The translations under genes were made by a program, and so were the position numbers. 62,246 nucleotides of DNA from a virus (taxonomy: Duplodnaviria > Caudoviricetes). This document shows positions 23,745-62,246 of the stretch, one piece after another (the first letter of the stretch is position 1; each line of letters opens with the position of its first letter). The notes below the pieces were generated by a model. That model saw only the letters and a list, made by a program, of their open reading frames with translations, was not told the origin of the DNA and did no database searches. The stretch is from the IMG/VR virus record IMGVR_UViG_3300022821_000020, positions 1 to 62,246 of that record; one strand, given 5' to 3'.

Positions 23745-24269
23745 ATGGTGGGTAGAACTAAAAGAAACGATAAGGTAGGCAAACCCAGGTGCTGCAAAAA
23801 ATCAAATGGAACAAAGTGTTGGTACCTGGATGACAAGTTGCACAGGACCGATGGTCCTGCTCACGTACGTGCTGATGGAACAAAACGTTGGTACCTGAAT
23901 GGTCAGAGACACAGGACCGATGGTCCTGCAATCGTACATGCTGATGGAAGGAAATGCTGGTACCTGGATGACAAGTTGCACAGGACCGATGGTCCTGCTA
24001 TCGAGTGGCCTGATGGAACAAAACATTGGTACCTGGATGACAAGTTGCACAGGACCGACGGTCCTGCTATCGAGTGGCCTGATGGAACGAAATACTGGTA
24101 CCTGGATGACAAGTTGCACAGGACCGATGGTCCTGCAATTGAGCGGGATGATGAAACGAAGAGCTGGTACCTTTTCGGAAGAAGGTACGAAGACTTGGAG
24201 CTTTGGAGGGTAACCTCCGAGATATTCGCTTATTTATTCCCTAAATTTGAAAATGGGTTTAGAAACTAA
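23745..24269 (+). CDS. HRTDGPA 23-aa repeat protein A (5 cores)
   Basis: 69-nt tandem modules; conserved C-cap WYLFG..YEDLELWRVTSE...LFP. Confidence 0.9.
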   Translation: MVGRTKRNDKVGKPRCCKKSNGTKCWYLDDKLHRTDGPAHVRADGTKRWYLNGQRHRTDGPAIVHADGRKCWYLDDKLHRTDGPAIEWPDGTKHWYLDDKLHRTDGPAIEWPDGTKYWYLDDKLHRTDGPAIERDDETKSWYLFGRRYEDLELWRVTSEIFAYLFPKFENGFRN

Positions 24270-24325
24270 CTTGAGTACCATACATTAGGATTGGAGTCTT
24301 TTACGGGCTACTGTTAGGAATTGAT

Positions 24326-24505
24326 ATGACAAAAACAAAAAAGATGCAAGTGACTCTACTTGCACAGATTGAGCTTGATTATGATGAAACCGCAGATGAA
24401 GAATATCAAGAGAAATTAGAGCTTCTAGTTGAAGAACTTGAAGAGTTGGGACTCAAAGTTGATGTTGAGGCTGAAGAGCCTGTCACAGATGAGGAAGAAT
24501 ATTAG
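24326..24505 (+). CDS. small highly acidic protein (59 aa, not in the ORF track)
   Basis: AGGA SD; MTKTKKMQVTLLAQIELDYDETADEEYQEKLELLVEELEELGLKVDVEAEEPVTDEEEY. Confidence 0.7.
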   Translation: MTKTKKMQVTLLAQIELDYDETADEEYQEKLELLVEELEELGLKVDVEAEEPVTDEEEY

Positions 24506-24575
24506 TCTTGCTAGTTTACTTCTACGCAGAAAGCTGCTAGAGTGATTATTAAGTACAGTCAACCAAACGGAGAGA

Positions 24576-25031
24576 ATGATGCTGGGAAAAGCTATTGCCA
24601 TCGCAAGTAAAGTCCACGAAAACCAAAAGGACAAAGGTGGTCACGCTTATATCCTACATCCAATTCGCATCATGATGCGTCTTAGGACCAACGATGAGGA
24701 GTTGATGCAAATTGCCATACTCCACGACGTCGTTGAAGATTCAGACGAATGGACTGTTGACAGGCTTCTTCAGGAAGGTTTCACGGGCCGAGTTCTAAAC
24801 GCCCTCAAGCTTCTAACACATGATTCCAAGGATACCTATGAGACTTACGTCAAACAGCTTTCCACAAACACAGATGCAATTAGGGTGAAGCTAGAGGACT
24901 TGCGGGACAACTCAGACATAACTCGGCTCAAAGGTCTTAGGGGTCAAGATTTGGAGCGTATGGAGAAGTACCACCGAGCGTACCTGTTTCTCAGGAAGAC
25001 ACTCGAAAACTCCCAAGCTTGCGGTTATTAA
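24576..25031 (+). CDS. HD-domain protein (RelA/SpoT hydrolase-like)
   Basis: H..Q.DKGG..YILHP, AILHDVVED, VKLEDLRDN. Confidence 0.88.
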   Translation: MMLGKAIAIASKVHENQKDKGGHAYILHPIRIMMRLRTNDEELMQIAILHDVVEDSDEWTVDRLLQEGFTGRVLNALKLLTHDSKDTYETYVKQLSTNTDAIRVKLEDLRDNSDITRLKGLRGQDLERMEKYHRAYLFLRKTLENSQACGY

Positions 25032-25726: not shown

Positions 25727-25730
25727 GAAA

Positions 25731-26189: not shown

Positions 26190-26209
26190 CAAGCCTTCCA
26201 TCTGGAGTT

Positions 26210-26244: not shown

Positions 26245-26253
26245 TTAATTGTG

Positions 26254-26287: not shown

Positions 26288-27082
26288 ATGTCGACATTCA
26301 CAGTAATAGTTGAGCGTGTGCTCATTTACTGCCATCCACAGGCAGATAGGTTGGAAATTGCGCAAGTGGGTGATTACCAGTCGGTCGTTGGAAAGGGGAC
26401 TTTCCAAACAAACGATCTTGTAGCCTATATTCCTGAACAAGCGCTCGTGCCACAAAATCTCCTAGCGGAGATGGGGCTTGAGGGTCGGCTCGCAGGTAAG
26501 GACAAAAATCGTGTGAAGGCTGTTCGTCTTCGTGGCGTCGTGTCCCAAGGCCTCTGCTACCCTGCACGTGAAGAGTGGCAAGAGGGTGCTGATGTCACCG
26601 AGGCGCTCGGCATCACCAAGTGGGAGCCGCCGATCCCCACACATCTTGCTGGGGAGGTGTTCAATGCAGGCCAGAATCGTACTCTCAAGTATGATATCGA
26701 AAACTACCGACGATTTCCCGACGTCCTTCAGGACGGTGAACCCGTCGTTTTCACAGAGAAACTTCATGGGTGTCTTCACGAAAACAGTTTGGTGACGATG
26801 CCAGATGGAAATGAGCGCACAATCGCAGAGGTGGTTGCAGATGAGACTATCGATAGTGTTTGGTCATACAATGAAGACACTGACGGATATGTTGTCAGGC
26901 CAATTACTGGTCGCATGCGACGTGCGAACAGCGAAGAAAAAAAATGGGTTAGGTTGACTATGGAAAATGGACGAGAGCTAGTTCTTACAGAAGATCACCC
27001 AGTTTATTCACGTGATCGCAAAGACTGGGTCAAGGCAGGCGAAGTTCGCCCCGAAGAAGATATTGAAAGCCCGATCATGTAG
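26288..27082 (+). CDS. RNA ligase (DRB0094-like) N-extein plus N-terminal split intein (26771-27079)
   Basis: HPQADRLE, VRLRGVVSQG, motif I TEKLHG followed by intein block A CLHENSLV and block B LTEDHPV. Confidence 0.92.
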   Translation: MSTFTVIVERVLIYCHPQADRLEIAQVGDYQSVVGKGTFQTNDLVAYIPEQALVPQNLLAEMGLEGRLAGKDKNRVKAVRLRGVVSQGLCYPAREEWQEGADVTEALGITKWEPPIPTHLAGEVFNAGQNRTLKYDIENYRRFPDVLQDGEPVVFTEKLHGCLHENSLVTMPDGNERTIAEVVADETIDSVWSYNEDTDGYVVRPITGRMRRANSEEKKWVRLTMENGRELVLTEDHPVYSRDRKDWVKAGEVRPEEDIESPIM

Positions 27083-27090
27083 CACGTTCC

Positions 27091-27894
27091 GTGCAAACGA
27101 ACATGCTTATTTACATGAGTAAATCAACGATAAAAGAGTATAAGTGTGCTGACTGTAAAGTGGCAATGTTTTACCCCTTTCACAGGGTAAGAAAACGTAT
27201 AGAAAATGGCATCTCAATACGGTGTAAATCATGTGCGCAAAAAAGAGCAGCTAGAAATCGTTCGCCAGAAGCGGCAAGGGCCATTCAAGAAGGTAGAAAA
27301 AGAGCTGCAAAAAAAATACACAATGTTCCTAAGTCAGTTCGAATTGAAAGAGCCAGTAAAGCTGGGCAAGGAAACAGAAACAATAACGGGTTAGCTGTTC
27401 GGCGGCAATGGGAAACGATAAAATCAGACGAAAAACGATACAAGCAAGCTTGTGAAAGATTAAAGCAGACAGCACTAAATTTCCATGCGTCGATGAGTGA
27501 GGAAGAAAAAAAGCTTCACTACGCTAAGGTTTTCAAGAATACTGGAAAGTCCAAAGCGTGCGAATTATTTTTGCAGGCAGTCGAAACTAAAACTAAGCGA
27601 AAAATTCTTCGTAAGAAAATGGTTTCTGGTTTCTTTGTAGACGGAATGTTCGACGAACAAGAAATCATACTAGAATTTTATGGAGATATGTTTCATTGTA
27701 ACCCAATAAGGTTTAATGATCCGAATAAATACTGTTCTTGGATTTCCAGGACCGTTGGCCAACAATGGAAAAGAGATGAAAGGCGTATAGTTGCCTTACT
27801 CAAAAACGGATATAAGGTTTTGATTGTTTGGGAATATGATTGGATCAACCAAAGCGAAGAAGTGGTAAAAAGGATAAAGAATGCGTTGTCTTAA
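27091..27894 (+). mobile_element. free-standing Vsr/DUF559-like homing endonuclease between the intein halves
   Basis: FVDG...ILEFYGDMFH...W.RD..R....GYKVLIVWE; basic N-terminus with CxxC pairs. Confidence 0.85.
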
Positions 27895-28609
27895 AGTCGA
27901 ATATATTGAAAGTGACAGTGATTTGTACGATCTTGAGATCGACGGCGGGGGCAATAACTACATTGCTGAAGGTGTTGTGGTTCACAACACCTGGTGCATG
28001 GTCGGGCTTGTGCCCAGGCACATGGGGCACCCCGAGGAGGGTCGACTCATTGTCTCATCCAAAGGTTTGGCAACTCGTGGCCTTGCTATGAAATACGATG
28101 CCGAGGCAAACAAAACAAATCTATATGTTCGTGTTGCTCGACACCATACTTTGGAAAATCGTATCAGTTTCGCTTTCGGTCGTGTTCTCAAGGACGAAGA
28201 GAACCCTCGCCCTGTGTACATCGTGGGCGAGATTTTCGGCGGTGGAGTTCAAGATCTCGCTTATGGTGCGAAGGCTGATAAGGACGTCGATATTGGGTTT
28301 CGTATTTTTGATGTGTATATTGGAGCGCCTGGCCAGGGTCGTTACCTGAACGATGCTGAGTTGGACGACGCTTGCAAAAGGCTTTCGATTCCCCGAGTAC
28401 CTGTTCTTTATCGTGGTCCGTTCTCTAAGGCAGCGATGTTGGAACATACCGACGGCTGTGAGACAATCACTGGCCAAGATACCCACATCCGTGAAGGCAT
28501 TGTTGTTCGTCCACAGGTGGAGCGCAGAAATGAGCAAATTGGACGTGTTCAGCTCAAGAGTGTGAGCGGGGCCTACCTGGTACGAAAAGGCGGGACTGAG
28601 TTTAACTGA
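27881..28609 (+). CDS. C-terminal split intein (36 aa, 27881-27988) plus RNA ligase C-extein
   Basis: LYDLEI..NNYIAEGVVVHN/T; then VSSKG, GEIFG, FRIFDV, VPVLYRG, REGIVV, LKSVS. Confidence 0.92.
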   Translation: MRCLKVEYIESDSDLYDLEIDGGGNNYIAEGVVVHNTWCMVGLVPRHMGHPEEGRLIVSSKGLATRGLAMKYDAEANKTNLYVRVARHHTLENRISFAFGRVLKDEENPRPVYIVGEIFGGGVQDLAYGAKADKDVDIGFRIFDVYIGAPGQGRYLNDAELDDACKRLSIPRVPVLYRGPFSKAAMLEHTDGCETITGQDTHIREGIVVRPQVERRNEQIGRVQLKSVSGAYLVRKGGTEFN

Positions 28610-29990: not shown

Positions 29991-30560
29991 ATGAACAACA
30001 AGCCAGATGAACCTGCGTGCAGGGAAGAGAACAATAGGTCCAAACATTGGTACCTGAATGGCAAGAGACACAGGACCGACGGTCCTGCCCTTGAATATCC
30101 TGATGGAGAGAAACGTTGGTTTCTGAATGGTAAGTTGCACAGGACCGATGGTCCTGCTGTTGAAAGACCTGATGGAGTAAAGCATTGGTACCTGGATGAC
30201 AAGTTGCACAGGACCGATGGTCCTGCAATTGAGCGGGATGATGAAACGAAGGAGTGGTGGCTGAATGGTAGTCGACACAGGGCGGACGGCCCTGCTATCG
30301 AGCATGCTGATGGTTCGAAGGAATGGTTCTTGAATGGTAAGATGCACAGGACCGATGGTCCTGCTGCCGAATATGCTGACGGAACGAAACATTGGTGCCT
30401 GAATGGTAAGTTGCACAGGACCGATGGTCCTGCTTGCGAGTATGCTGACGGAACGAAATATTGGTGCCTTTTCGGAGAACGGTACGAAGATTTGGAAGTC
30501 TGGAAGATAACCTCCGAGATGCTTGTCCTCCTGTTCCCTGGAATCGAGAGCGAAGAATGA
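29991..30560 (+). CDS. HRTDGPA repeat protein B (6 cores)
   Basis: 69-nt modules, conserved C-cap. Confidence 0.9.
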   Translation: MNNKPDEPACREENNRSKHWYLNGKRHRTDGPALEYPDGEKRWFLNGKLHRTDGPAVERPDGVKHWYLDDKLHRTDGPAIERDDETKEWWLNGSRHRADGPAIEHADGSKEWFLNGKMHRTDGPAAEYADGTKHWCLNGKLHRTDGPACEYADGTKYWCLFGERYEDLEVWKITSEMLVLLFPGIESEE

Positions 30561-31893: not shown

Positions 31894-32385
31894 GTGCTAA
31901 TTCTGTTTCCAAGCGAACTATCCGAATCAAAAAAGGTCGATTCCGCCTTTCTTGAGGAATGTCGTGCTGCCGAATCGGCTGGACACGATGTCGGTCTTAT
32001 CAATCAAGATGAGCTGGATGCGGGCAACTTCCAAAGGGCTGTCGCCCGAGTTTTGGGTGCTGGGGAAGAGGCTGTAAACCTTCTTACGGAGGTCGCCCTT
32101 GAGAATGTCTTGAATATTGTCATGAATAACTTCCCACCCGAGTGCAAGGTGTCTGAATACCTAGATGACATCTTGGTGACTTTGGATAGTTGTCAGAGTG
32201 ATTTCGGTGACTATAAGGTTGTCAAGGAAACTGTTGAGGTCAACACTTTGGAAATGGAAGTCCTCAGGGCGAAGTGGCATGCGCAATTGGCGCAGGATTT
32301 CAAGGACTGGGATCAGTCTGAGCGAGACCAAAAAGAGAAGGAAGAGCGAGCGCAGCTCACCAAGCTGAAGGCCAAATATGAGTAG
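31894..32385 (+). CDS. hypothetical protein; N-terminus resembles ATP-grasp (DUF4343-like) leaders
   Basis: MLILFPS...VD..F.EE..AA..AG. Confidence 0.5.
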   Translation: MLILFPSELSESKKVDSAFLEECRAAESAGHDVGLINQDELDAGNFQRAVARVLGAGEEAVNLLTEVALENVLNIVMNNFPPECKVSEYLDDILVTLDSCQSDFGDYKVVKETVEVNTLEMEVLRAKWHAQLAQDFKDWDQSERDQKEKEERAQLTKLKAKYE

Positions 32386-35963: not shown

Positions 35964-36410
35964 ATGTCTAAAAAAAGGGAACTTGAGTTCAAGCCATACA
36001 TAGGACGTTTTTTCCAATTCAGTTCTCGAATTCGTATGTCGCCCGAAAAAGCGATAATTGGGAAAACGCTTTACGGGAACTCGTTGAAACACCTTCTTTG
36101 TCAAACCAAAGAGACACTACCGAATTCCGTCTTCATTATTGCCGAGAAGAGAAACCACGTTAGATTTCTCTCGGGGGATTCGGACCATCTCTGGGTGCCG
36201 AAGACACAACTTGTACCTCTGAAACTACCAACTTTTGAGGGAAATCCTCTGATTTTGCTAGAGGAGTTTCGTAAATTCCTGGTTTATTGTACGGACACGA
36301 AGCTCAAAGATTTCAGCACAGATGAAATGGTTCGCCAGGCCATAAAACTGCTGCCGCAACTAGATGCCCTTATCGATAATCAGAGGGTAAAAATCATACC
36401 TGACGACTAA
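35964..36410 (+). CDS. hypothetical protein, distant paralog of 34965-35429
   Basis: see paralog. Confidence 0.6.
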   Translation: MSKKRELEFKPYIGRFFQFSSRIRMSPEKAIIGKTLYGNSLKHLLCQTKETLPNSVFIIAEKRNHVRFLSGDSDHLWVPKTQLVPLKLPTFEGNPLILLEEFRKFLVYCTDTKLKDFSTDEMVRQAIKLLPQLDALIDNQRVKIIPDD

Positions 36411-36420
36411 ATCAATTAGG

Positions 36421-36449
36421 TTGAAAAATCTCTATAACCGTGGTACAAT
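36421..36449 (+). promoter_or_regulatory. promoter TTGAAA-N17-TACAAT with extended TG
   Basis: consensus match; GGAGG SD downstream. Confidence 0.7.
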
Positions 36450-36477
36450 GAGGTATTACTAATGGAGGTCCCTTACT

Positions 36478-37800
36478 ATGGGCTTTGGATATCAGGTCAC
36501 GCACACGTCTGAAACAGCTCTAGCTGAGTCTGAAGGCGCAGAAGTACAACTGGCAGGTCGGGTCGTTTTTTGGCGAAAGCTGGGGAAGGTGGCGTTCGGA
36601 AAGCTGGCTGATTCAGAGGGTGTCATTCAGTTCTCTTTCAACATGCGAGAGACACCTAACACTTACAAGGAGTGGGTAAAATCTATCAAGATGGGCTCGC
36701 TTATTGCTATTTCAGGACAGATGTGGACTTCAAGCACAGGCGAGTTTACTGTCTTGGTTGATACAGACTTCATGGCGCTGCGCCATTCAATGCACCCTTT
36801 CCCCAACAAGTGGGCTGGGATTGTTGACCCCGAATTGAAGCTCCGTAAGCGCTACCTCGATATCGCCCTTGACCCTGAAGTAAAGCGACGCTTTAGGTTG
36901 CGAAGTCAACTAATTTCGTTCATGCGGCTCTACTTGGACACGCAGAACTTCATGGAAGTGGAGACCCCAGTTCTTTCGCCGAGTGCATCTGGGGCTCAGG
37001 CAAAGACTTTTGTTACACACCACAATGCCTTGGGCGCATACCTGCATATGAGGATTGCACCTGAAACCTATCTCAAGAGGACAGTTGCAGCAGGCTTCGA
37101 CCGAGTTTTTGAGATAGGCAAGCAATTCCGCAACGAAGGCATGGACCCCTCCCATCTCCAGGAGTTTACATCTGTGGAGTGGTATGCGGCCCATTGGGAT
37201 TACAAAGACAATCTACAGTTTTTTAATGGGCTGCTAAAGGGAATTTTTGAATTCTGCCTTCCTAAGGATGGAGCCGACGAAACTACCTACATTCTAAACT
37301 ATCAGGGAGTAGAGCTAGATTTCAGTGACCCCCCTGTCAAAACCTATCAAGAAGTCTGTCTTGAGCTGGGAGGATTTGACCCATTTGAGTTGGATGACTG
37401 GAAGGAGGTTGACGAACGTTTCAAGGCCGAGGTGCGACCGAAGCTCATTCAGCCGATTTACTTGGTTGATTATCCTGCCCACATGAGCCCGTTGGCCCAT
37501 CGCTCAGAAGATGGGAAGACAGTTGAACAGTGGCAGTTTATTGTCAACGGTTGGGAGCTTGTAAAGTGCTACACGGAGCTTACCGACCCCGTTCTTCAGC
37601 GTCAGCTACTTGAGGAACAGATGGAGGCTCGTGGTGCTGGTGATGACGAGGCCATGATGCTTGAGGAAGACTTTCTTGAGTGTATGGAATACGGCATGCC
37701 GAACATGAGTGGTTTAGGAATGGGAATTGACCGCTTGGTCGCTCTTTTGACTAACCAAACGTCGCTGCGTGACGTTGTGCTATTTCCCACCGTTCTATAG
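36478..37800 (+). CDS. lysS: class II lysyl-tRNA synthetase
   Basis: OB fold AGRV..RK.GK..F, RKRYLD, FMEVETP, LHMRIAPE.YLKR, FRNEG, EFT..EWY, YGMP..SG.G.GIDRL, DV.LFP. Confidence 0.95.
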   Translation: MGFGYQVTHTSETALAESEGAEVQLAGRVVFWRKLGKVAFGKLADSEGVIQFSFNMRETPNTYKEWVKSIKMGSLIAISGQMWTSSTGEFTVLVDTDFMALRHSMHPFPNKWAGIVDPELKLRKRYLDIALDPEVKRRFRLRSQLISFMRLYLDTQNFMEVETPVLSPSASGAQAKTFVTHHNALGAYLHMRIAPETYLKRTVAAGFDRVFEIGKQFRNEGMDPSHLQEFTSVEWYAAHWDYKDNLQFFNGLLKGIFEFCLPKDGADETTYILNYQGVELDFSDPPVKTYQEVCLELGGFDPFELDDWKEVDERFKAEVRPKLIQPIYLVDYPAHMSPLAHRSEDGKTVEQWQFIVNGWELVKCYTELTDPVLQRQLLEEQMEARGAGDDEAMMLEEDFLECMEYGMPNMSGLGMGIDRLVALLTNQTSLRDVVLFPTVL

Positions 37801-37819
37801 GAAATTTGGCATAAAACAA

Positions 37820-38233
37820 ATGAAGACAAAGAAGACAATAAGGCGAAAGCAAAAAAAGCTCAAGGCAAGGTATTGGCCACCATCTGCTATCTGGTTGGAG
37901 CCTGGAACACTTGTTCAATTCCGAAAAAGATTTGAGCCCCATAAGCCCAATGAGTGGGTCTATGAAGGGGGTATCCTACGCTGGAACTCTCTTAGCAGCT
38001 ACAAAGACTTTATTATAAGACGCCGACCCCCAAGGAGCGCTCCGCTCGACATCAGGAGGTTAAGGCCGCATGGAGAGACATATTACATGGAAGACAGTTA
38101 TGGGGAACTTTGCCTGGTAGTTGATAGGCACCGTCTAAGTGATAATGCCATTCTCATAAGAGTTGCTTATGAAGACAAGATGTTTTGGGTGGAATCTAGT
38201 GAATTGTGTAAACAAGAAAGGGAAAATGAATGA
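37820..38233 (+). CDS. hypothetical protein with SH3-like pattern
   Basis: EPGTLV...GELCLVVD...IRVAYEDKMFWV. Confidence 0.55.
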   Translation: MKTKKTIRRKQKKLKARYWPPSAIWLEPGTLVQFRKRFEPHKPNEWVYEGGILRWNSLSSYKDFIIRRRPPRSAPLDIRRLRPHGETYYMEDSYGELCLVVDRHRLSDNAILIRVAYEDKMFWVESSELCKQERENE

Positions 38234-38547
38234 CTTGGAAACTGTTTCTTGATGATGTGCGTAACCCTACTGAAGAGGGCTATATTGTGGCCCGTTCTTC
38301 GATTATGGGGGTGGTTGAAATCGCCAACCGAAAGGAACTACCAGATTTTATGAGTTTGGACCATGACCTGGGTGAGGCTGATACAACTATGAAGTTCCTA
38401 AAAGAGCTGTATCAGATTTGGGAGATTCGTGGTGCAGACCCCAAGGAAATTCCTGACTACGTCGTCCATTCAGCTAACCCTTTGGGAACGTTGAATATTA
38501 TCTCGTACATGGAGTCTTGGAAGAAATCGGTAGTAGGTGATTGCTGA
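38230..38547 (+). CDS. cyclic-phosphate-processing receiver-like domain protein
   Basis: LFLDDVRNP, SLDHDLG, VHSANP.G. Confidence 0.8.
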   Translation: MTWKLFLDDVRNPTEEGYIVARSSIMGVVEIANRKELPDFMSLDHDLGEADTTMKFLKELYQIWEIRGADPKEIPDYVVHSANPLGTLNIISYMESWKKSVVGDC

Positions 38548-38550
38548 TTC

Positions 38551-38853
38551 ATGTTCTTGGACGAGCTAAGAGAGACTAAACCGCATTGTATCGAGTACTC
38601 CGACGGAATGAGGCGTTGGCTTTTGGGCTATAAATTGCACAGGTCTGATGGCCCTGCTGTTGAATATCCTGATGGTTCAAAGTTTTGGTACCAAAACGGT
38701 CAATTACACAGGACCGATGGTCCTGCTATCGAGTATATTTGTGGTTATCATGGCTGGTATCTTTTCGGAGAACGGTACGAGGATTTGGAAGTCTGGAAGA
38801 TAACCTCCGAGATGCTAATCCTTCTGTTTCCTGGATTCGGGAGCGAAGAATGA
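38551..38853 (+). CDS. HRTDGPA repeat protein C (2 cores)
   Basis: modules plus C-cap; ATGA overlap with D. Confidence 0.85.
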   Translation: MFLDELRETKPHCIEYSDGMRRWLLGYKLHRSDGPAVEYPDGSKFWYQNGQLHRTDGPAIEYICGYHGWYLFGERYEDLEVWKITSEMLILLFPGFGSEE

Positions 38854-39479
38854 GCAGCAAGTCAGATGAACCTGCGTGCATTGAATATCCTGATGGAACG
38901 AAAGAATGGTGTCAGAATGGTAAATTGCACAGGACCGATGGTCCTGCTATCGAGTGGCCTGATGGAACGAAAGAATGGTGTCAGAATGGTAAATTGCACA
39001 GGACCGATGGTCCTGCTATCGAGTGGCCTGATGAAGAGAAGTCTTGGTACCTGAATGGTAAAAGGCACAGGACCGATGGTCCTGCGATTGAACGTGCCAA
39101 CGGAACCAAACATTGGTACCTGAATGGTCAGAGACACAGGACCGATGGTCCTGCGGTTGAACGTGCCAACGGAACAAAACGTTGGTACCTGAATGGTAAA
39201 AAACACAGGACCGATGGCCCTGCGATTGAATACCCTGATGGAACGAAAAAGTGGTACTTAAATGATAAGAAACACAGGACCGATGGTCCTGCTAACGAGC
39301 TTTCGAATGGAGCAAAGCTTTGGTATCTAAATGGTAAGAGACACAGGACCGATGGTCCTGCAATTGAATATCCTGACGGTTCAAAGCATTGGTATCTTTT
39401 CGACAAAAAGTACGAAGATTTGGAGGTCTGGAGAGTAACCTCGGAGATACTCACTTGCTTGTTTCCAGCCCTGAAGTAA
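38850..39479 (+). CDS. HRTDGPA repeat protein D (7 cores)
   Basis: MSSKSDEPAC start; modules plus C-cap. Confidence 0.9.
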   Translation: MSSKSDEPACIEYPDGTKEWCQNGKLHRTDGPAIEWPDGTKEWCQNGKLHRTDGPAIEWPDEEKSWYLNGKRHRTDGPAIERANGTKHWYLNGQRHRTDGPAVERANGTKRWYLNGKKHRTDGPAIEYPDGTKKWYLNDKKHRTDGPANELSNGAKLWYLNGKRHRTDGPAIEYPDGSKHWYLFDKKYEDLEVWRVTSEILTCLFPALK

Positions 39480-39914
39480 GGAAGAGGAAACATAACAAAC
39501 GGGAGTAAAATTCACCTTGCTTGTGTTACTCTAATCAAGTCAGATGAGAATGAAATACAGGCAAATACAAGTAACCCTTCTTGAAAAAAAGCGAGAGGAG
39601 CAGGTACACAAGGTTCCTTCTGGTGACAGGGCACAAGTCAACCATGTTTTAGCTGCCAAGGTTTGGAAAGCGCCTAATCTAGGTCTCTGGAAAGGGCCAA
39701 AACTCCTTGAGGTTTACTCAGATGACTATCGTGGAGACAGAATCCTCCATTACGTAAAAAAACTGGAAGATGAAAACCAGGAATTGAGAACCATAATGGC
39801 TGGTGAGCGGCGAGTTGAATTTGAGCAAACCATAAACCTTTGGCCAATATTCTTAGTCGCCGTAGTGCTATGGTGTATCTGTACGCTATTTTTCTTTATT
39901 CTATGAGGAGCCCA

Positions 39915-40505: not shown

Positions 40506-40581
40506 GAAACTTGAATTAAGCCCGATTCCCGTTGTTCTTCTCGGCCCCCGTTTTCTATACTCATATTACAAGGGAGTCCGC

Positions 40582-41223: not shown

Positions 41224-41364
41224 ACTAGGAAGAGCGTTACCCAAGGAGGTAAACACTCCACACCTGCTTATGTTTAAGGTATTATAAGGCCTGGTGACTA
41301 ACTGAAAGTAGCAAATCACCTAGCCCTTCTTCGAATATGCGGAAAGAAAACACAGGTGTGAAGC

Positions 41365-47885: not shown

Positions 47886-48311
47886 ATGAATAAGGCATCA
47901 GGCATTCTCTTGATCCGCAAATCGGATGGCAAGGTTCTCACAGCTTCACGCAGGAACTCGTTTGATAGGATTGGTATCCCAGGTGGCAAGGTCGACCCAG
48001 GGGAGACAAATATAGAAGCCTGTATTCGTGAAGTGTTTGAAGAAACAGGTATCGGGCTTGAGGTAGAAGAGATAGAACTAGTTTATATTCGTCCGTGCAA
48101 AGGTGACGTGCCATATGAAATGCATGTTTACTTTTGTTATGCGGAAGACATTAGCCCCAGGGCCGATTTCAACGAACCTTTTCAAAAGGAAGCGGGGATA
48201 CAGATTCGCTGGGCAACGTGGGAAGAGCTGGTAGCAGAGCACAACCCCTTTTCCAAATATAACACTGGCTTATATGAGCACATGAAAAGCAAGCTTGGAA
48301 ACGAACAATGA
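47886..48311 (+). CDS. NUDIX hydrolase
   Basis: PGGKVDPGETNIEACIREVFEETG. Confidence 0.92.
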   Translation: MNKASGILLIRKSDGKVLTASRRNSFDRIGIPGGKVDPGETNIEACIREVFEETGIGLEVEEIELVYIRPCKGDVPYEMHVYFCYAEDISPRADFNEPFQKEAGIQIRWATWEELVAEHNPFSKYNTGLYEHMKSKLGNEQ

Positions 48312-49381
48312 AGAATTACTATAAAGCTCTAGATGTTTCTGAGGATGCAGACGAAACGACTATCAAAAAAGCTTACAGGAAGCTTGCGATGGAACATCAC
48401 CCTGACCGTAATCAGGGCAATGCCGAGTCTGAAGAGAGGTTCAAAGAAATCTCTGAAGCCTACGCTGTACTTCAAGACGTTGATAAACGCCGAGAATACG
48501 ACATGAAACGTAAGATGCCCGAGGGTTTTGGTTACAGCGGTCCGAATATTGGCGGGATCAACTTAGACGATTTCCTCAGGGAGATGGGTTTTGCAGGCAA
48601 TCCCCACCAAAGGGCCCAACGTCGACCAGCACCTCCCCAACGTGGCCAGTCCGTTCGTGCTTCCTTCACCCTGGATCTTGAGGATGTGCTTGATGCAACA
48701 ATTAAGAAAATCAATCTGGGTCGGATGAAGCGCTGTGTGGATTGTGGTGGGAGTGGAGCTGGTGATGGTCCCAACGCTGTAAAAACTTGTGATACTTGTA
48801 ATGGGCTAGGCGTGAATACACAAACCCGAGGTGGGTTTAGGATGCAAAGCACCTGTGAAGGCTGCTTAGGGGAAGGAAAGGTAATCCAAGAGGTTTGCAA
48901 GACATGCTCCCGCTCAGGGTTTCAAAAGGTCACAGAAGAGGTCACAGTCAGAGTTCCCGCTGGCGTAAAGACTGGGGACTTACTCAGAGTCCCAGGCAAG
49001 GGTCATGAAAGTAGGAGCATACACGGAATGCCTGGAGACCTCCACATCCAAATCAAAATTTCAGACCACCAAATATTTGAGCGTGATGAGGTAGAGATAT
49101 ATCAAAAGGTTCAACTTCCATACACCCTGTGCGTACTCGGTGGGAAAGTAGAAATACCTATTCTATCAAATAGTGATGTAAAGAAGCGTGAGGTAATTGT
49201 TGAACCAGGTTTGTCGACAGGTAGAGTTCAACGATTTTCAGAAATGGGCTTGCCTCATCCACGTTCTCAACAACGTGGTGACATGGTAGTGGAATATGAA
49301 GTCCAGGTGCCAAAAGCGGTTGACCTGACAGAAGAACAGCGTGACTTAGTGGAGAAGCTCCAGTGGGCATTTAATGACTAA
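48308..49381 (+). CDS. dnaJ: chaperone DnaJ
   Basis: J domain HPD, four CxxCxGxG-type motifs, C-terminal domain. Confidence 0.95.
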   Translation: MKNYYKALDVSEDADETTIKKAYRKLAMEHHPDRNQGNAESEERFKEISEAYAVLQDVDKRREYDMKRKMPEGFGYSGPNIGGINLDDFLREMGFAGNPHQRAQRRPAPPQRGQSVRASFTLDLEDVLDATIKKINLGRMKRCVDCGGSGAGDGPNAVKTCDTCNGLGVNTQTRGGFRMQSTCEGCLGEGKVIQEVCKTCSRSGFQKVTEEVTVRVPAGVKTGDLLRVPGKGHESRSIHGMPGDLHIQIKISDHQIFERDEVEIYQKVQLPYTLCVLGGKVEIPILSNSDVKKREVIVEPGLSTGRVQRFSEMGLPHPRSQQRGDMVVEYEVQVPKAVDLTEEQRDLVEKLQWAFND

Positions 49382-49573
49382 TATTGGACCCTATCGAACA
49401 AACGCTAAATTGCCACTACGACCTAAGACGTGCGGCTACACCGATGACTACAAGACCTGTGAAGACGAAGTTCAGGCCAATCAGGAATATTGCTGTTGGC
49501 ATCTACATGAGATGTACGGCTGGCATGACATTCCTTTTCAAGGCTGCGGAAACCCAGGTTGCGACTGCTGGCC

Positions 49574-50191
49574 ATGAAACAATACCCAACAATCCCTAAA
49601 AAGCCCAAGAAGGGCCCAACTAAATTCTACGTGTTCGACAAGCTGGATGGTTCCAACGTCCGTGCTAAGTGGTCTATGAAGCGAGGATTCCATAAGTTTG
49701 GAACTCGTAAGAGACTCCTTGGTAGCGACCAGGGGCTTTTGTACTTGGCACAAGGGCTGATTGAGGCTACGGACGGTAAATTCCGCAAGGTCTTTAGCGG
49801 CGCAAAAATTGAGCAGGCCACCTGTTTCTTTGAATTCTGGGGTGACAAGTCCTTCGCTGGAAGTCATGTGGCAGACGATGTTCACAGGGTGACTCTGTTT
49901 GACGTCAGTATTTCTGGGCGGGACTATCTTTCTCCGAAGGAATTTGTTGGCCTATTTGAGCAGGCACCTATCGAAACAGCTGACTTGCTATATCACGGTC
50001 CTATAGATGAACTTTTTAGAAGCCAGGTTGTTGATGGCACACTTCCTGGGATGACTGATGAGGGCGTGATTTGCAAAGCGAATCCCACCAAACGGTTTAA
50101 TCAGCCAAATATGTTTAAGATCAAGTCTCAGGATTGGATTGATCGTGTAAAGGCTAAATTTGACAAATCACGCTGGGAAGACCTGTTGTAG
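49574..50191 (+). CDS. second RNA ligase-like nucleotidyltransferase
   Basis: KLDGSN, FFEF.G, LFDV, EGVICK, FKIK. Confidence 0.78.
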   Translation: MKQYPTIPKKPKKGPTKFYVFDKLDGSNVRAKWSMKRGFHKFGTRKRLLGSDQGLLYLAQGLIEATDGKFRKVFSGAKIEQATCFFEFWGDKSFAGSHVADDVHRVTLFDVSISGRDYLSPKEFVGLFEQAPIETADLLYHGPIDELFRSQVVDGTLPGMTDEGVICKANPTKRFNQPNMFKIKSQDWIDRVKAKFDKSRWEDLL

Positions 50192-52120: not shown

Positions 52121-52675
52121 ATGAACAACAAGTCAAATAAACCTGTGTGCCTCGAAGACAACACTGGAACCAAGCGTTGGTACCTAGGTACCAACTTGCA
52201 CAGGACCGATGGTCCTGCCCTTGAATATGTTAATGGCTTGAAAAAATGGTTTCAGAATGGTAGGTTGCACAGGACCGATGGTCCTGCAATTGAAAAAGCT
52301 GATGGAACCAAACATTGGTATCTGGATGACAAGTTGCACAGGACCGATGGTCCTGCAATTGAAAAAGCTGATGGAACCAAACATTGGTATCTGGATGGTC
52401 AGAGACACAGGACCGATGGCCCTGCTACCGAGCTTTCGGATGGTTCGAAGGAATGGTTTCTGGATGATAAAAGACACAGGACCGATGGTCCTGCGGTTGA
52501 ATGTTTTGATGGAACCAAACATTGGTATCTAAATGGTAAGAAACACAGGACCGATGGTCCTGCTGTTGAATATCGTGGTGGAACAAAGTGTTGGTACCTT
52601 TTCGGAGAAAAGTACGAAGACCTGGAACTTTGGAGAGTAACCTCGGAGATGTTCACTCAACTGTTTCCTGAATAA
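52121..52675 (+). CDS. HRTDGPA repeat protein E (6 cores)
   Basis: modules plus C-cap. Confidence 0.9.
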   Translation: MNNKSNKPVCLEDNTGTKRWYLGTNLHRTDGPALEYVNGLKKWFQNGRLHRTDGPAIEKADGTKHWYLDDKLHRTDGPAIEKADGTKHWYLDGQRHRTDGPATELSDGSKEWFLDDKRHRTDGPAVECFDGTKHWYLNGKKHRTDGPAVEYRGGTKCWYLFGEKYEDLELWRVTSEMFTQLFPE

Positions 52676-56547: not shown

Positions 56548-57117
56548 TCATTCTTCGCCCTCAAACCTAGGGAACAGAAGGACAAACATCTCGGAGGCAA
56601 CTCTCCAAAGTTCCAGGTCTTCGTACTTTTCTCCGAAAAGGTACCAACACTTTGTTCCACCACGATATTCAACAGCAGGACCATCGGTCCTGTGTCTCTT
56701 ATCATTCAGAAACCAATGTTTCTCTCCATCAGGATATTCAAGGGCAGGGCCATCGGTCCTGTGTCTCTTATCATTCAGAAACCAATGTTTCTCTCCATCA
56801 GGTCTTTCAAGGGCAGGGCCATCGGTCCTGTGTCTCTGACCATCCAGAAACCAATGTTTGGTTCCATCAGGATATTCAACCGCAGGACCATCGGTCCTGT
56901 GCAACTTACCATCCAGAAACCAATGTTTCTCTCCATCAGGTCTTTCAACAGCAGGACCATCGGTCCTGTGAAGAACACCATTCAGGTGCCAATGCTTGGT
57001 TCCATCAGAATATTCAATTGCAGGACCATCGGCCCTGTGTCTTTTACCATTCAAGAACCACTCCTTCGAACCATCAGAATGCTCCCTGCACTCAGGCTTC
57101 TCAGATTTACTGTTCAT
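56548..57117 (-). CDS. HRTDGPA repeat protein F (6 cores)
   Basis: modules plus C-cap. Confidence 0.9.
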   Translation of the reverse strand: MNSKSEKPECREHSDGSKEWFLNGKRHRADGPAIEYSDGTKHWHLNGVLHRTDGPAVERPDGEKHWFLDGKLHRTDGPAVEYPDGTKHWFLDGQRHRTDGPALERPDGEKHWFLNDKRHRTDGPALEYPDGEKHWFLNDKRHRTDGPAVEYRGGTKCWYLFGEKYEDLELWRVASEMFVLLFPRFEGEE

Positions 57118-57614
57118 TCTTCACCCTCAAACCTAGGGAACAGAAGGACAAACATTTCGGAGGTCACCCTCCAAAGTTCCAGGTCTTCGTACTTTTCTCC
57201 GAAAAGGTACCAACAATTTGTTCTATAAGGATATTCACAAGCAGGACCATCGGCCCTGTGTCTTTTACCATCCAGAAACCAATGTTTGGTTCCATCAGGA
57301 TATTCAATTGCAGGACCATCGGTCCTGTGCAACTTGTCATCCAGGTACCAATGTTTGGTTCCATCAGGATATTCAATTGCAGGACCATCGGTCCTGTGCA
57401 ACTTGTCATCCAGATACCAATGTTTGGTTCCATCAGCATACTCGACAGCAGGACCATCGGTCCTGTGGAACTTACCATTCTGACACCATTCTTTCGTTCC
57501 ATCAGGATATTCAACCGCAGGACCATCGGTCCTGTGTCTCTTATCATTCAGGCACCAATATTTCCTTCCATCGGCATGCTCGTAATACATGGACTTGCCC
57601 GACTTAGCGCTCAT
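57114..57614 (-). CDS. HRTDGPA repeat protein G (5 cores)
   Basis: MSAKSG start with ATGA overlap; modules plus C-cap. Confidence 0.9.
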   Translation of the reverse strand: MSAKSGKSMYYEHADGRKYWCLNDKRHRTDGPAVEYPDGTKEWCQNGKFHRTDGPAVEYADGTKHWYLDDKLHRTDGPAIEYPDGTKHWYLDDKLHRTDGPAIEYPDGTKHWFLDGKRHRADGPACEYPYRTNCWYLFGEKYEDLELWRVTSEMFVLLFPRFEGEE

Positions 57615-58946: not shown

Positions 58947-59104
58947 ATGAGTAAAAATTTCGACAAGCTTGTGTGTCTCAAAGACGGCAATGGAACGAAG
59001 CGTTGGTACCTGAATGGTATGAAGACCTGGAACTTTGGAGGGTGACCTCTGAGATGTTTAGTTCCCTGTTTCCGTCCACAGAAGATATACACCTGGAAGA
59101 ATAA
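58947..59104 (+). pseudogene. collapsed HRTDGPA-family gene H (N-cap fused out of frame to C-cap, zero repeats)
   Basis: MSKNFDKLVCLKDGNGTKRWYLNG, then in another frame YEDLELWRVTSEMFSSLFP...EE*. Confidence 0.88.
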
Positions 59105-59105
59105 G

Positions 59106-59798: not shown

Positions 59799-59801
59799 AA
59801 T

Positions 59802-61934
59802 ATGTTTAAAGCAGGTGACAAGGCTCTCACAAACAAGGGAAACAGGATTGTTGAAATTCGACGAACTCTCCAGGCTGACAACTCACCAGGGTGGGGGCAG
59901 GTCGAAACAGAAGACGGCGTTTACTGGGAGCGGGAACTTCACCAGGCTCACCAGACAGTCTTGGACACTATCGAGGCTAAGGAGCAGGACTTTATAGGTG
60001 AGATGAGCGAAGCGATGGCGGAAGTTTTCGATGAAGTTCCTTGGAAGCTGACTGGCAAACTCAACAAACTTCTTAATGAGGCCAATCTAAAAGTCGATTT
60101 CCGAGGACACTGGAAAAATGGTTCTGCACTTTATGACTCGGCGCACTTCACTAAGAAGATGATGAGACATCAACTTTTCTTGGGCGTTGAGAGAAAGAAC
60201 ATTGAAGACCTAATTGAAGTTCTTGTGCACAACAAGAAGAAGCAAGCCCTCAAGAAGCTCGATAGGTGGATTGGACTTGGGCAGTCTGTAGGTTTAGGCT
60301 CATCAGCCTGCACTTACTGTGCCAAAGACAACTTCCAGCTTGAAACGGATGGCATTACTGTTCGATTACTTGGGGATACCTGCCCAGTGCCTGAAGGCTT
60401 CGAGCCTAATGTGTGGGAGTTGAACGTGCCCAGCGGAAAACTGGTCATTGAGAACGGCCTTAGCAATTGGTTTCCGCTTCCTGAAGGAGACCTCGATTGC
60501 GATATCAATACGATTATTGGCTGCCGTGAATATTCACAACTTCATGCTGCCATTGGTCTGTCTTTTGGGTTTGTTGGCAATACTTGCCCAAGTGTAGTAG
60601 AAGGTGAAAAGAAGGACTCCTACAGAATCGCCAATGGCAGCTCAGAAAAGGAGCTGGCGAACATCTGCACCGACCTTTGGTGGTATTCAATTTGTGATTA
60701 CGAAGAACTCGAACGCCGACTGGAAAAGTTCGGTGACCACGGTGACAGAGGAATGTCGCAATTCACTGTTATCGATGTGAAACCTGGGGTATACCAATTC
60801 AATCACTATGACGAAGCAGATTGCCATGCTACAGAAGTGCTTTTTGCAGACTTCGCATGGGTCCGTGAGCCAGGCCCCGTGAAGGATTTTCTCGGCGAAT
60901 GCTCTGAGTTGCCCGAAGTCAATCCACACGCATACGTACAACGTCAGTGTCAGCAGTGGCCAACCCTTTATGGCAAGACGGGAAGTTATCCTTATGACGA
61001 AGTGCCAGTGCCCTGGGAGCAAATGTCAGAAGAGGATCAACATCATTCCTGGGAACGTGTAGCCAACCAAATTTTCTTCACCCTCGGAGGCGGGACCTCG
61101 TGGCACGAAAATGGTTTTCCAGCTGAAAAGGTCGCCAAGGACGTTGTCGATATTGAACCCCCAAGCTTTCGTTACCAGGTTAACTGGTACCCTTTTTCGA
61201 AGGGTTACGGCGGGCTTTTTGGCGATGTCAAACTAAGCAACAGTTTTGCTAGGCTCGCATTCCGTTGTCTTGAGTCGATTATTTCTTTTGGGATGAAAGT
61301 TAGTGATAGTGAAAGATGCCGCCACACTTACCAGGCCCGTAGTAGAATGAGCATGGCGGTAACCAAGTACCGAGAAATGGCACAACTTTACCCAGAAGCA
61401 GCCGATCCTGAATATGTTTGGTGGCTTTCTGAGAAGGGGCGAGCAGAAGCCTGGGTGGAACGATTTGATCTTGGTCCGAAGTACACTGAAAAACACCGCA
61501 AATACGTCCAGGCTCAGCGTTGGGTTCCCGATGATGCTTATGCAATTGAGTTTGACACACGAAAGATATCGGATGGGCAGTTTACTGGAAAAAATGGCTG
61601 TTGGTCATCAAAAGCCTCGGCTGATGGTTTTGCTATCCTAGAATGGGGTGACTTTGAGCCAGGTGAGAACCCTGAAGACAACTGTTTTTGGGCGAGTCAC
61701 GCAGAAAGAACGGCAGTACCTCTTTATTCGGTGGCCAGAGTTGTGAAAGTCGGAGAAGTCTCACATATGGGTCGGACACTTGTAGAGCTTTCATATGACT
61801 ATGGGACCGAATGGATGCGTTCAGCAACAACCCGCAAGGCAGTTGAAGAAAAGGTGCATAAACAAGGCATTCGTGTTCTCTCTAAAGAGGAATATAATGA
61901 GCTTTTGCCAACAGCAAGAAACTTTTCATCATAA
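59802..61934 (+). CDS. large hypothetical phage protein (710 aa)
   Basis: long ORF; VPSGKLVI, FVGNTCP, ICTDLWW motifs. Confidence 0.75.
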   Translation: MFKAGDKALTNKGNRIVEIRRTLQADNSPGWGQVETEDGVYWERELHQAHQTVLDTIEAKEQDFIGEMSEAMAEVFDEVPWKLTGKLNKLLNEANLKVDFRGHWKNGSALYDSAHFTKKMMRHQLFLGVERKNIEDLIEVLVHNKKKQALKKLDRWIGLGQSVGLGSSACTYCAKDNFQLETDGITVRLLGDTCPVPEGFEPNVWELNVPSGKLVIENGLSNWFPLPEGDLDCDINTIIGCREYSQLHAAIGLSFGFVGNTCPSVVEGEKKDSYRIANGSSEKELANICTDLWWYSICDYEELERRLEKFGDHGDRGMSQFTVIDVKPGVYQFNHYDEADCHATEVLFADFAWVREPGPVKDFLGECSELPEVNPHAYVQRQCQQWPTLYGKTGSYPYDEVPVPWEQMSEEDQHHSWERVANQIFFTLGGGTSWHENGFPAEKVAKDVVDIEPPSFRYQVNWYPFSKGYGGLFGDVKLSNSFARLAFRCLESIISFGMKVSDSERCRHTYQARSRMSMAVTKYREMAQLYPEAADPEYVWWLSEKGRAEAWVERFDLGPKYTEKHRKYVQAQRWVPDDAYAIEFDTRKISDGQFTGKNGCWSSKASADGFAILEWGDFEPGENPEDNCFWASHAERTAVPLYSVARVVKVGEVSHMGRTLVELSYDYGTEWMRSATTRKAVEEKVHKQGIRVLSKEEYNELLPTARNFSS

Positions 61935-62092
61935 AATTACTGAATGACAAACAAGGGCAAAATTAGCAAAGTCGTTTATCCAGGTGGCGGAATAAAGCTA
62001 AATATCAATGCCAAGAGTAACGTGAAGTTTCGTCTTGGTGTCGGCCTTATTGTTATCGCCTCGTTGCTCATTCTTCTACTTGCGAGCGAAGA

Positions 62093-62246
62093 ATGAGCAA
62101 TGAATCGCCCAAGCTTGTGTGTCTCAAAGACAACAATGGAACGAAGCGTTGGTATCTAAATGGTAAGAAACACAGGACCGATGGTCCTGCGGTTGAACGT
62201 GCCAACGGAACCAAATATTGGTACCTGAATGGTCAGAGACACAGGA
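62093..62246 (+). CDS. HRTDGPA repeat protein I (partial, runs off window end)
   Basis: MSNESPKLVCLKDNNGTKRWYLNGKKHRTDGPAVERANGTKYWYLNGQRHR. Confidence 0.88.
   Translation, partial: MSNESPKLVCLKDNNGTKRWYLNGKKHRTDGPAVERANGTKYWYLNGQRHR

Follow-up and report, generated by a model that had tools for sequence, protein, structure and literature searches.

The window, i.e. the whole 62,246-nt stretch analysed here, is a 62 kb piece of the genome of a salt-lake phage of very large size, with phage-like gene content and a completeness of 14 % assigned to the IMG/VR record by CheckV. Dispersed along it is a family of repeat proteins for which the original prediction had counted eight genes, one remnant and about 38 cores; ORF and module mapping arrives at the same eight genes and one frameshifted remnant and at 38 in-frame W-x6-HRxDGPA modules of 69 nt each. 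The individual members are:

g1, 23745-24269, plus strand: 174 aa, 5 modules, with a distinct N-cap (MVGRTKRNDKVGKPRCC...)
g2, 29991-30560, plus strand: 189 aa, 6 modules, carrying the diverged core CAGGGC-GGACG-GCCCTG at 30278-30294
g3, 38551-38853, plus strand: short gene, 100 aa, 2 modules; the core of module 1 is HRSDGPA and can form just 4 of the 7 stem pairs; the stop of g3 and the start of g4 share 4 nt
g4, 38850-39479, plus strand: 209 aa, 7 modules; the protein used for the structure model
g5, 52121-52675, plus strand: 184 aa, 6 modules
g6, 56548-57117, minus strand: 189 aa, 6 modules
g7, 57114-57614, minus strand: 166 aa counted from the ATG at 57614, a start picked on the resemblance of MSAKSGKS... 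to other family N-caps; 5 modules
remnant, 58947-59104, plus strand: N-cap plus WYLNG fused out of frame to a C-cap (YEDLELWRVTSEMF, beginning YEDLELWRVTSEMFSSLFP...); no core remains
g8, 62093-62246, plus strand: truncated by the record end, with one full module and the beginning of a second

In Pfam scans the flanking genes of family members include RNase H, cREC_REC, an exonuclease and hypotheticals.

The HRTDGPA peptide at the core of the modules is encoded as CAC AGG ACC GAT GGT CCT GC, and the predicted hairpin spelling, a 7-bp stem closed by a 3-nt loop, is indeed present: the 17-mer CAGGACCGATGGTCCTG occurs at 36 sites in the window (28 exact and 8 with one mismatch; 25 on the plus and 11 on the minus strand) against an expectation of 0.01 in shuffled sequence, while two further diverged cores (30278-30294 and 38640-38656) raise the total to 38. 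Among the window modules His is always CAC, Arg always AGG and Pro always CCT (38/38 each), Thr is ACC in 34/34, and the Asp and Gly codons are less fixed (GAT in 35/38, GGT in 32/38); Ala13, on the other hand, is spelled in four ways (18/9/7/4) and Thr20 in three. Folded as DNA, the consensus hairpin has a dG of -6.7 kcal/mol (z -4.8). In g2 the core at 30278-30294 is changed in both arms and retains a 6-bp stem with a 5-nt loop (DNA dG -7.0 vs. -6.7 for the consensus). This two-arm variant, to which the original prediction drew attention, is real, but it is the single compensated case among 89 distinct cores of the lineage, and covariation at positions 5/13 across these cores is not significant (A/T 75, A/C 7, G/T 4, and one each of G/C, T/C and T/T). 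Simple arithmetic from window codon usage puts the chance of a palindromic spelling at ~0.003 per lineage.

The proteins themselves are predicted to be MORN-type β-hairpin arrays, in keeping with the fold proposed at the outset. An AF2 model of g4 (pLDDT 88.7, pTM 0.71) finds its best Foldseek matches in MORN1 of T. brucei, Toxoplasma and Plasmodium (E 5e-9 to 1e-7, TM about 0.5, match probability 1.0), with junctophilins next in the list at E 1e-6. In profile searches, the Pfam MORN_2 profile gives 12.5 bits for g4 (cut-off 29.6) and no match at E<=1 in the other six of the 7 window proteins, and 6 of the 7 match DUF6745 (PF20530) at 29.8-43.2 bits (cut-off 27), g1 scoring 29.8 and g3 falling under the cut-off at 21.3, in a match that spans only ~17-24 of 206 profile positions and has its best stretch at positions ~57-81, i.e. 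the repeat motif itself. Judged by sequence comparison, the family is very large, mostly phage-borne and without known function: 7406 of 8000 scored candidates are related at E<=0.001, the closest Atlas clusters are 93-100 % viral, and relatives lie on 200-450 kb contigs at 43-63 % identity. Relatives are present in only 5 of 50,697 phage records, one being the jumbo phage Atu_ph07, where 9 places with relatives are all annotated as hypothetical. The C-cap helix YEDLExW..SE..LFP is present in some aligned relatives and missing in others.

The palindrome does not travel with this family. Homologs use non-palindromic codons, an outcome that the original prediction itself had named as counting against it: the 1002 distinct modules collected from homologs on other viral contigs include none with a 7-bp stem, average 2.35 pairs vs. 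2.40 in column shuffles and contain one module with at least 6 pairs where 4.6 are expected. Likewise, of 725 homolog cores none forms 7/7 pairs and a single one forms 6/7, the variable residue of HRxDGPA being T in 277, E in 198, I in 92 and V in 60. The exact 20-mer has no match in any other IMG/VR contig. The identical 20-mer does turn up in L165, an unrelated contig, within a single module of another repeat protein. The hairpin core is a lineage-specific spelling; as a signal it is not conserved across the protein family. A conserved functional DNA or RNA hairpin was considered and rejected, with pairing at the shuffled level in the 1002 homolog modules and one compensated core in the lineage.

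Within the lineage, on the other hand, synonymous uniformity of the core is unusual for the family and incompletely explained. Non-majority synonymous codons make up 9/224 in the core vs. 85/305 elsewhere in the window modules (Mann-Whitney by site: p=0.009 within the 38 modules of the window, p=0.003 once metagenome relatives bring the set to 89 distinct modules), and with pS at 0.09-0.12 for core columns as opposed to 0.55-0.62 for the others, core synonymous diversity is ~5-6x below that of the rest of the module. The low core variation noted in the original prediction is supported, with the caveat that matched residues elsewhere in the module, P17 (CCT 17/17), H22 (CAT 16/16), D18 (26/29) and G4 (22/23), are equally uniform in the window, as are N3 and Y16. 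The uniform block has sharp edges that match the palindrome ends; His7 has C as its third base in 87/88 despite adjoining the hypervariable codon 6, and the third base of Ala13, two bases beyond the palindrome, is second only to Thr20 in synonymous variability (H 0.58 and 0.65, respectively). Plain gene conversion would be expected to leave softer edges, an observation that speaks against an incidental palindrome, as does a core 5-6x less diverse synonymously, unlike the family norm. Elsewhere in the family the picture differs, with non-majority codons at 22 % in the core and 20 % outside in 50 other loci pooled, and core diversity equal to or above non-core diversity in most of the 22 closer loci analysed. 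Non-palindromic cores are nevertheless homogenised in places: 17/33 are identical in L131, the 23 cores of L141 share just 4 spellings, and 12/18 are identical in L152, where non-majority codons amount to 7 % in the core vs. 17 % outside.

Modules are gained, lost and reordered between related populations, as the original prediction had anticipated. In short-read metagenome assemblies, alleles with flanks 95-99.95 % identical differ in the number and order of modules in the array: g6 has 6 modules vs. 5 in L167 and 4 in L175, the L167 allele being g6 less exactly one 69-nt unit, and g1 has 5 vs. 3 different ones in L162 behind the same N-cap and next to a flank 97 % identical. Further array alleles hold 6 modules (L161 and L172), 4 (L170) or at least 7 (L174), and L173 and L160 present other module orders. 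Other alleles are unchanged, with the same 6 modules for g5 in L164 (99.8 % identity across 4.5 kb), the same 5 for g7 in L167, and a 12-module array assembled identically in 4 samples (99.7-99.95 % identity over 6.2-7.1 kb). Such whole-unit allele differences and mosaic sharing of segments, as seen in these short-read assemblies, are the hallmarks of concerted evolution by unequal recombination. Two more specific expectations were not borne out. The core shows no excess of junctions: they fall within it in g6 vs. L167 and in the first deletion of L170, but outside it in L175 (W codon), the second deletion of L170 (right flank), the converted patch of L174 and the remnant, for ~2/6 inspected events in a core that makes up 29 % of the module. 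Nor do inter-core stretches behave as cassettes, since past a distance of ~10-20 nt r2 has dropped to the value of unlinked sites, with pairs that span the core (0.029-0.032) no different from pairs inside one spacer (0.030-0.033).

In light of these results, we consider it probable that the locus holds an ordinary MORN-like repeat family evolving by homology-driven recombination, in which the palindrome is incidental. Each 23-residue module would form one hairpin unit of an elongated sheet, with the invariant W, HRTDGPA, E, G and K residues likely building the scaffold, whereas the freely varying module positions (1, 3-6, 14, 16, 17, 20 and 22) may provide a binding surface directed toward host or competitor proteins; the anti-defence role put forward in the original prediction is hypothetical. 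Recombination among the many module copies, presumably by unequal crossover or slippage together with short-tract gene conversion, would then add, remove and reshuffle modules between related populations. The 20-nt core would do no more than encode the one long peptide stretch that does not vary, for which the codons of this lineage, AGG/CCT and ACC/GGT, happen to be self-complementary; homogenisation through concerted evolution would keep it uniform, and no dedicated machine would read the palindrome as a signal. It is important to note that non-core pS near 0.6 makes very recent amplification unlikely as the sole cause of core identity.

We regard as unlikely, albeit worth weighing at some length, that the palindrome is instead held perfect by a pairing-dependent force which in turn promotes shuffling. 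This could happen through hairpin-templated (quasi-palindrome) correction during replication, where a synonymous change in one arm would be undone, its complement in the opposite arm being barred by an invariant residue, or through selection for a hairpin or cruciform at which replication stalls or breaks, with repair then drawing on other modules; in either form the element would be a self-maintaining, recombinogenic, in-frame motif with no need for a dedicated enzyme. Short quasi-palindromes do template mutations in bacteria, and synonymous third positions in one arm of the core face protein-constrained first positions in the other. The depression of core pS is found here and not in most of ~70 other loci analysed, which would suit such a force, but the 1002 homologous modules display no family-wide pairing tendency, and non-palindromic cores are also homogenised in other phages. 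The block ends where the palindrome ends, yet the loop site D10 is as uniform (85/89) as the stem sites, as are the P17, H22, N3 and Y16 codons outside the core. The one stem pair free on both sides at the protein level, 5/13, is also the only one that varies appreciably across the 89 cores, but with a single compensated case and no significant covariation. The hairpin is stable as DNA, yet the commonest core variant, GGT->GGC in 7/89 distinct cores, breaks the stem with an A.C mismatch (dG -2.7). Finally, some indel junctions do lie within the core, but without enrichment over its share of the module and with linkage across it equal to linkage within spacers. The stronger proposition, that this self-correcting palindrome is an in-frame recombination hot spot at which modules are shuffled faster than in non-palindromic relatives, strikes us as distinctly improbable.

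Still harder to sustain, and in our view very improbable, is a role at the RNA level, with mRNA stem-loops pacing the ribosome once per module, protecting transcripts or acting as a shared operator. The uniform block coincides with the stem-loop and the whole g4 mRNA folds better than shuffled versions (z -4.2, 20 shuffles), but in that full-length fold the cores mostly pair with each other and not locally; moreover, homologs have the same protein repeat without the hairpin, and a single operator per mRNA would suffice. The listed sequencing runs are all DNA (24/24), with none recorded as RNA. Least credible of all is a dedicated combinatorial system in which the 17-mer is the target of an enzyme encoded elsewhere (nuclease, recombinase, transposase-like protein or reverse transcriptase) that would shuffle the cassettes between cores into a binder library: the large number of identical palindromic sites, spaced at a constant 69 nt, the variation of populations in module number and order, and the ~86 % of the genome that lies outside the window would accommodate it, but the 62 kb examined (~14 % of the genome) contain no match to integrase, resolvase or Y1 transposase (PF00589, PF00239, PF01797) and no RVT_1 match above cut-off (best 14.6 bits vs. 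29.6, unconfirmed on the ORF, to which no Pfam family is assigned), so that the search for a recombinase or reverse transcriptase called for by the original prediction found none in the window; nor is such an enzyme present among 9 ORFs scanned from the related loci L172 and L168, while the stretches between cores are not passed on as intact cassettes, junctions occur outside the core too, and homologs in other phages do without the site.

Few protein types are commoner in large phages than these repeat proteins, which have no known function, and module turnover between natural populations of one phage is as expected of arms-race proteins. Should the palindrome raise shuffling, it would amount to a mutator motif embedded in coding sequence that builds combinatorial binder libraries, a self-programmed diversification that dispenses with a dedicated enzyme; should it have no such effect, the locus is a warning, since a chance in-frame palindrome can mimic a signal.

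Dispersed families of repeat-protein paralogs (ankyrin, MORN, FNIP and others) are known from giant viruses, where they are thought to mediate protein-protein interactions (PMC5753266), and for marine viruses MORN-repeat proteins were reported to be 37 times commoner in long-read data than in assemblies (PMC9238414); the portions of these two papers drawn on here make no mention of an in-frame palindromic core with low synonymous diversity. Giant viruses infect eukaryotes, whereas the gene content of the window is phage-like. Many homologs of the window proteins bear the DUF6745 label or fall into unnamed phage clusters, and the Agrobacterium jumbo phage Atu_ph07 has a multicopy set as the window does, yet at an identity of only 33.5 %; there is no known function for any DUF6745 member or Atu_ph07 paralog. 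Diversity-generating retroelements and CRISPR-like arrays offer a superficial likeness, in that variable stretches of uniform length are separated by a short, invariant palindromic repeat and a few residues carry most of the variability, but the 'spacers' of the window, unlike those of CRISPR-like arrays, are coding, in frame and mutually homologous. A diversity-generating retroelement was rejected, the 62 kb having yielded neither a reverse transcriptase nor a template/variable pair, and so was site-specific recombination or IS200/IS605-type Y1 transposition, with no cognate enzyme gene in the same window. YwqK-type immunity proteins of Bacillus LXG toxins are also repeat-built binders, which neutralise a partner protein; YwqK carries MORN_2 repeats, and one homolog cluster is labelled 'antitoxin component YwqK' by its source. 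This assignment was likewise set aside, as Pfam scans detect no toxin domain in the ORFs flanking the window genes; the Imm31 match lies below cut-off. With the MORN repeat proteins (MORN1 and junctophilins; Pfam MORN and MORN_2) the window family shares the 23-residue repeat and the elongated β-hairpin array, whereas its motif, W-x6-HRxDGPA-x-E-x2-DG-x-K, differs from the MORN consensus.

The eight MORN-like repeat genes of the window (g1 to g8, the last truncated by the record end) together hold 38 in-frame 69-nt modules of the form W-x6-HRxDGPA-x9, two diverged cores included, where the core is the 20-nt coding sequence of the HRTDGPA motif with its 7-bp, 3-nt-loop hairpin and the spacer is the rest of the module. 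From g1 to g7 the genes contain 5, 6, 2, 7, 6, 6 and 5 modules, and of a ninth locus (58947-59104) only a remnant survives, an N-cap and WYLNG fused out of frame to the C-cap, with zero cores. The 17-mer CAGGACCGATGGTCCTG is found at 36 sites (28 exact and 8 with one mismatch), against 0.01 expected from shuffles. Core codons are near-fixed (CAC 38/38, AGG 38/38, ACC 34/34, GAT 35/38, GGT 32/38, CCT 38/38), Ala13 directly behind the core uses four codons and Thr20 three, and the variant core at 30278-30294 has both arms changed and still folds; the original prediction therefore described the modules, their core spelling and this two-arm variant correctly. The tetranucleotide GATC is absent from the ~3.9 kb of g1-g8 and present in 141 copies in the other 58.4 kb, an absence that may mean nothing, since the modules are all copies of each other.

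The claimed uniformity of the core at synonymous sites is likewise confirmed, with pooled non-majority synonymous codons at 9/224 (4 %) in the core versus 85/305 (28 %) outside. A metagenome scan with the 20-mer returned 18 stretches, 16 of them from this phage lineage, and since these loci were retrieved via the exact 20-mer the sample is biased towards it. The window and its relatives give 89 distinct modules, 69 with the exact core, the remaining core variants being rare and including single CAT, AGA and CCA codons; mean synonymous heterozygosity, averaged from per-site values, comes to about 0.06 for core sites and about 0.32 for the others (Mann-Whitney p 0.003), and pS is 0.09 and 0.55, respectively. 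Such low synonymous diversity of the core is unusual for the family: 50 other loci, pooled, have 22 % non-majority codons in the core versus 20 % outside, and in most of 22 closer loci the core equals or exceeds the non-core, only one contig (L152) going the same way as the window (7 % vs 17 %). Several codons outside the core are no less fixed than its own (P17 17/17, H22 16/16, N3 22/23, G4 22/23, Y16 17/18). The edges of the uniform block are sharp and coincide with the palindrome, which plain gene conversion does not fully explain.

Relatives of the family spell the motif differently. Retrieval from other viral contigs with a degenerate W-x6-HRTDGPA pattern gave at least 119 stretches and, among the matches listed, 725 homolog cores, none of which has the 7-bp stem or the exact window spelling and one of which forms 6 of the 7 pairs; their middle residue, again among the matches listed, is most often T (277 cores), then E (198), I (92) and V (60). 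Across 1002 distinct modules, comprising the retrieved stretches among the matches listed and 31 closer loci, mean pairing is 2.35 of 7 versus 2.40 with codon columns shuffled, and a single module has at least six pairs versus 4.6 expected. The exact 20-mer occurs in no other IMG/VR contig, and simple arithmetic on window codon usage puts the chance of a palindromic spelling of R-T/G-P plus His-C/Ala-G at ~0.003. In an unrelated metagenome contig (L165 5451-6368), a different repeat protein of HRxGGPA/HRTDGPA type has one module with the exact 20-mer, a palindromic spelling arisen by chance. The palindrome had been proposed as a possible recombination or DNA-binding site used to reshuffle binder modules. 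Homologs spell the motif in codons that do not form the palindrome, one of the outcomes that the original prediction had listed as counting against it, and the comparison does not demonstrate that the palindrome, which relatives lack, acts as a signal.

The other half of that interpretation, module shuffling, is real: arrays differ in module number and order although their flanks are 95-99.95 % identical, as judged from short-read assemblies in which contigs of other samples were compared with the window or with one another. The six-module g6 (56548-57117, minus strand) has an otherwise identical counterpart in contig L167 with a clean 69-nt loss, joined within core bases 1-6, and a four-module allele in L175 that is divergent from the W codon onward. 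Where g1 (23745-24269, plus strand) has five modules, L162 has three different ones. Another family gene has six modules in L161, L172 and L177, four in L170, with one deletion running core-to-core and the other in the right flank, and at least seven in L174, with a two-unit tandem duplication and a converted patch in the left flank. Outside the window, a 12-module, 328-aa family gene has the same assembly in four samples of the phage lineage, and in one of them it lies near a second N6_N4 DNA methylase (L172 1584-2345); other module orders appear in L173 and L160, some combinations being recombinant across the core and others within the spacer.

Positions of the 12-module family gene
L166, 935-1921
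L168, 7066-8052
L172, 45-1031
L174, 11507-12493

Over 36400-41400, Logan contigs from four salt-lake runs break inside the repeats, where depth sums over paralogs, and a joint from 38880 to 39106, whose sides are separated by 18 other letters, probably stems from paralogs. Comparison of L164 1-65 with window 52653-52675 further reveals a g5 (52121-52675, plus strand) allele ending with the g6/g7 C-cap FVLLFPRFEGEE and not FTQLFPE, which reflects either conversion of the gene's 3' end or a chimera at the end of the contig.

Neither the core as a special breakpoint nor the inter-core stretches as shuffled cassettes withstands closer inspection. By tally, about 2 of the 6 junctions inspected fall inside the core, which makes up 29 % of the module, and hence amount to no enrichment. 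Beyond 10-20 nt, linkage between polymorphic sites in the window has dropped to the value for unlinked sites (about 1/n), and at matched distances of 21-48 nt r2 is the same across the core (0.029-0.032) and within the spacer (0.030-0.033). A Mantel-type test gave r 0.16 (p 0.04) across the core and r 0.03 (p 0.40) within the spacer, and a pair-count test on 25 arrays (z -18.9 and -15.4) agrees with the linkage result. On these short-read assemblies, the inter-core stretches are thus not cassettes and the core is not a privileged breakpoint.

In light of these results, an ordinary reading has the best support, namely that a very large phage holds a multigene family of MORN-like repeat proteins whose modules would be gained, lost and exchanged by homology-driven recombination and whose variable positions probably make up a binding surface, with the core as the coding sequence of the one long invariant peptide that concerted evolution would keep uniform and whose palindromic spelling may be a lineage accident. 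This leaves the core's excess uniformity in the lineage and the sharp edges of the uniform block unaccounted for. Both features, together with the pattern of which stem pair varies, fit the main rival explanation, that pairing itself maintains the core through hairpin-templated correction or selection for a recombinogenic hairpin, yet the common GGC variant breaks the stem, covariation is lacking, the loop site is uniform too, and junctions show no preference for the core. A dedicated enzyme-driven shuffling system has little support: the recombinase or reverse transcriptase suggested as a target for searching did not appear, with no reverse transcriptase, tyrosine integrase, serine resolvase or Y1 transposase above cut-off in the window's 62 kb (~14 % of the genome) and no recombinase- or reverse-transcriptase-type enzyme beside family genes in two related loci. 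An RNA-level role of the hairpin has equally little support. A weak RVT_1 match at 32035-32241 fell below cut-off and was unconfirmed on an ORF. Restriction-site avoidance was also discarded, since GGWCC half-sites elsewhere than in the repeats show no avoidance (41 GGACC sites against an expected 44.1, and 34 GGTCC sites against 38.1).

The 62,246 bases of the window make up one complete IMG/VR virus record; its CheckV completeness is 14 %, so it represents only part of the genome of a very large phage. Among the matches listed, at least 24 runs hold it, labelled salt-lake or lake-water metagenome, and in 13 of 24 no fewer than half of the sampled words are present. When 20 kb of the window was compared with the phage collection by megablast, there were zero matches. 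The genes of the window are accessory cargo of the kind typical for a large phage, including a DNA methylase, NAPRTase, SPFH protein, R2K ATP-grasp protein, RNase H, metallophosphatase and SprT-like protein in addition to the following.

Selected features of the window
18283-18451: two tRNA-Leu genes (CAA, TAA)
26288-27082: ORF with PHA02142 OB-fold and the N-part of a Hint/intein
27091-27894: ORF without family, between the intein ORF and the RNA_ligase ORF
27881-28609: RNA_ligase ORF
36478-37800: class II aminoacyl-tRNA synthetase (D/K/N type)
38230-38547: cREC_REC (cyclic-phosphate processing receiver) domain protein, directly upstream of g3/g4
39840-40505: DEDDh exonuclease, directly downstream of g3/g4
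40582-41223: ClpP protease
48308-49381: full DnaJ
49559-50191: second RNA_ligase ORF

The synthetase, DnaJ, ClpP and tRNA-Leu genes are cargo for translation and proteostasis, as is typical in very large phages. One of the two RNA-ligase ORFs adjoins the Hint/intein ORF, and 26288-28609 looks like an RNA-ligase gene split by an intein-like element; the cREC_REC protein, DEDDh exonuclease, RNA ligases, an HD protein and the metallophosphatase suggest an RNA-repair theme around the family genes.

By sequence, the g4 protein falls outside Pfam MORN. MORN_2 matches just one of the repeat proteins, at 12.5 bits where the cut-off is 29.6; the DUF6745 cut-off is exceeded by six of the seven, but solely via a ~20-residue match to the repeat motif; PHROGs and NCBIfam yield only short sub-motif matches to families of unknown or unrelated function; and the PDB gives only weak CPAP G-box matches (E 0.26-0.42). 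Our literature search found no paper naming an HRxDGPA-type motif or DUF6745, and a term search of the available text of a jumbo-phage comparative paper (PMC7824862) found neither MORN nor YwqK. This is a very large family, with E<=0.001 in 7406 of 8000 scored candidates; its nearest Atlas clusters are 93-100 % viral, and its closest viral relatives, at 43-63 % identity, often lie on 200-450 kb contigs. Only 5 of 50,697 records in the GenBank phage collection have a relative, one being jumbo phage Atu_ph07, with nine places all annotated hypothetical.

The AlphaFold model of g4 (38850-39479, plus strand; mean pLDDT 88.7 from an alignment of 26 sequences) is built of short strands repeating every 23 residues, with a helix at the C-terminus. 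Conserved and variable residues alternate along the strands, which suggests that the variable ones may share one face of the sheet. In the five most variable columns, where synonymous sites are near saturation, pN/pS is 1.06-1.07, compatible with neutrality or mixed selection and not a demonstration of positive selection. Foldseek matches to this model include crystal structures of MORN1 from T. brucei, Toxoplasma and Plasmodium (E 5e-9 to 1e-7, TM about 0.5), as well as junctophilins. Long-read marine viral data are strongly enriched for MORN-repeat proteins according to the available text of PMC9238414, and multigene families of repeat-domain proteins are typical of giant viruses according to that of PMC5753266.
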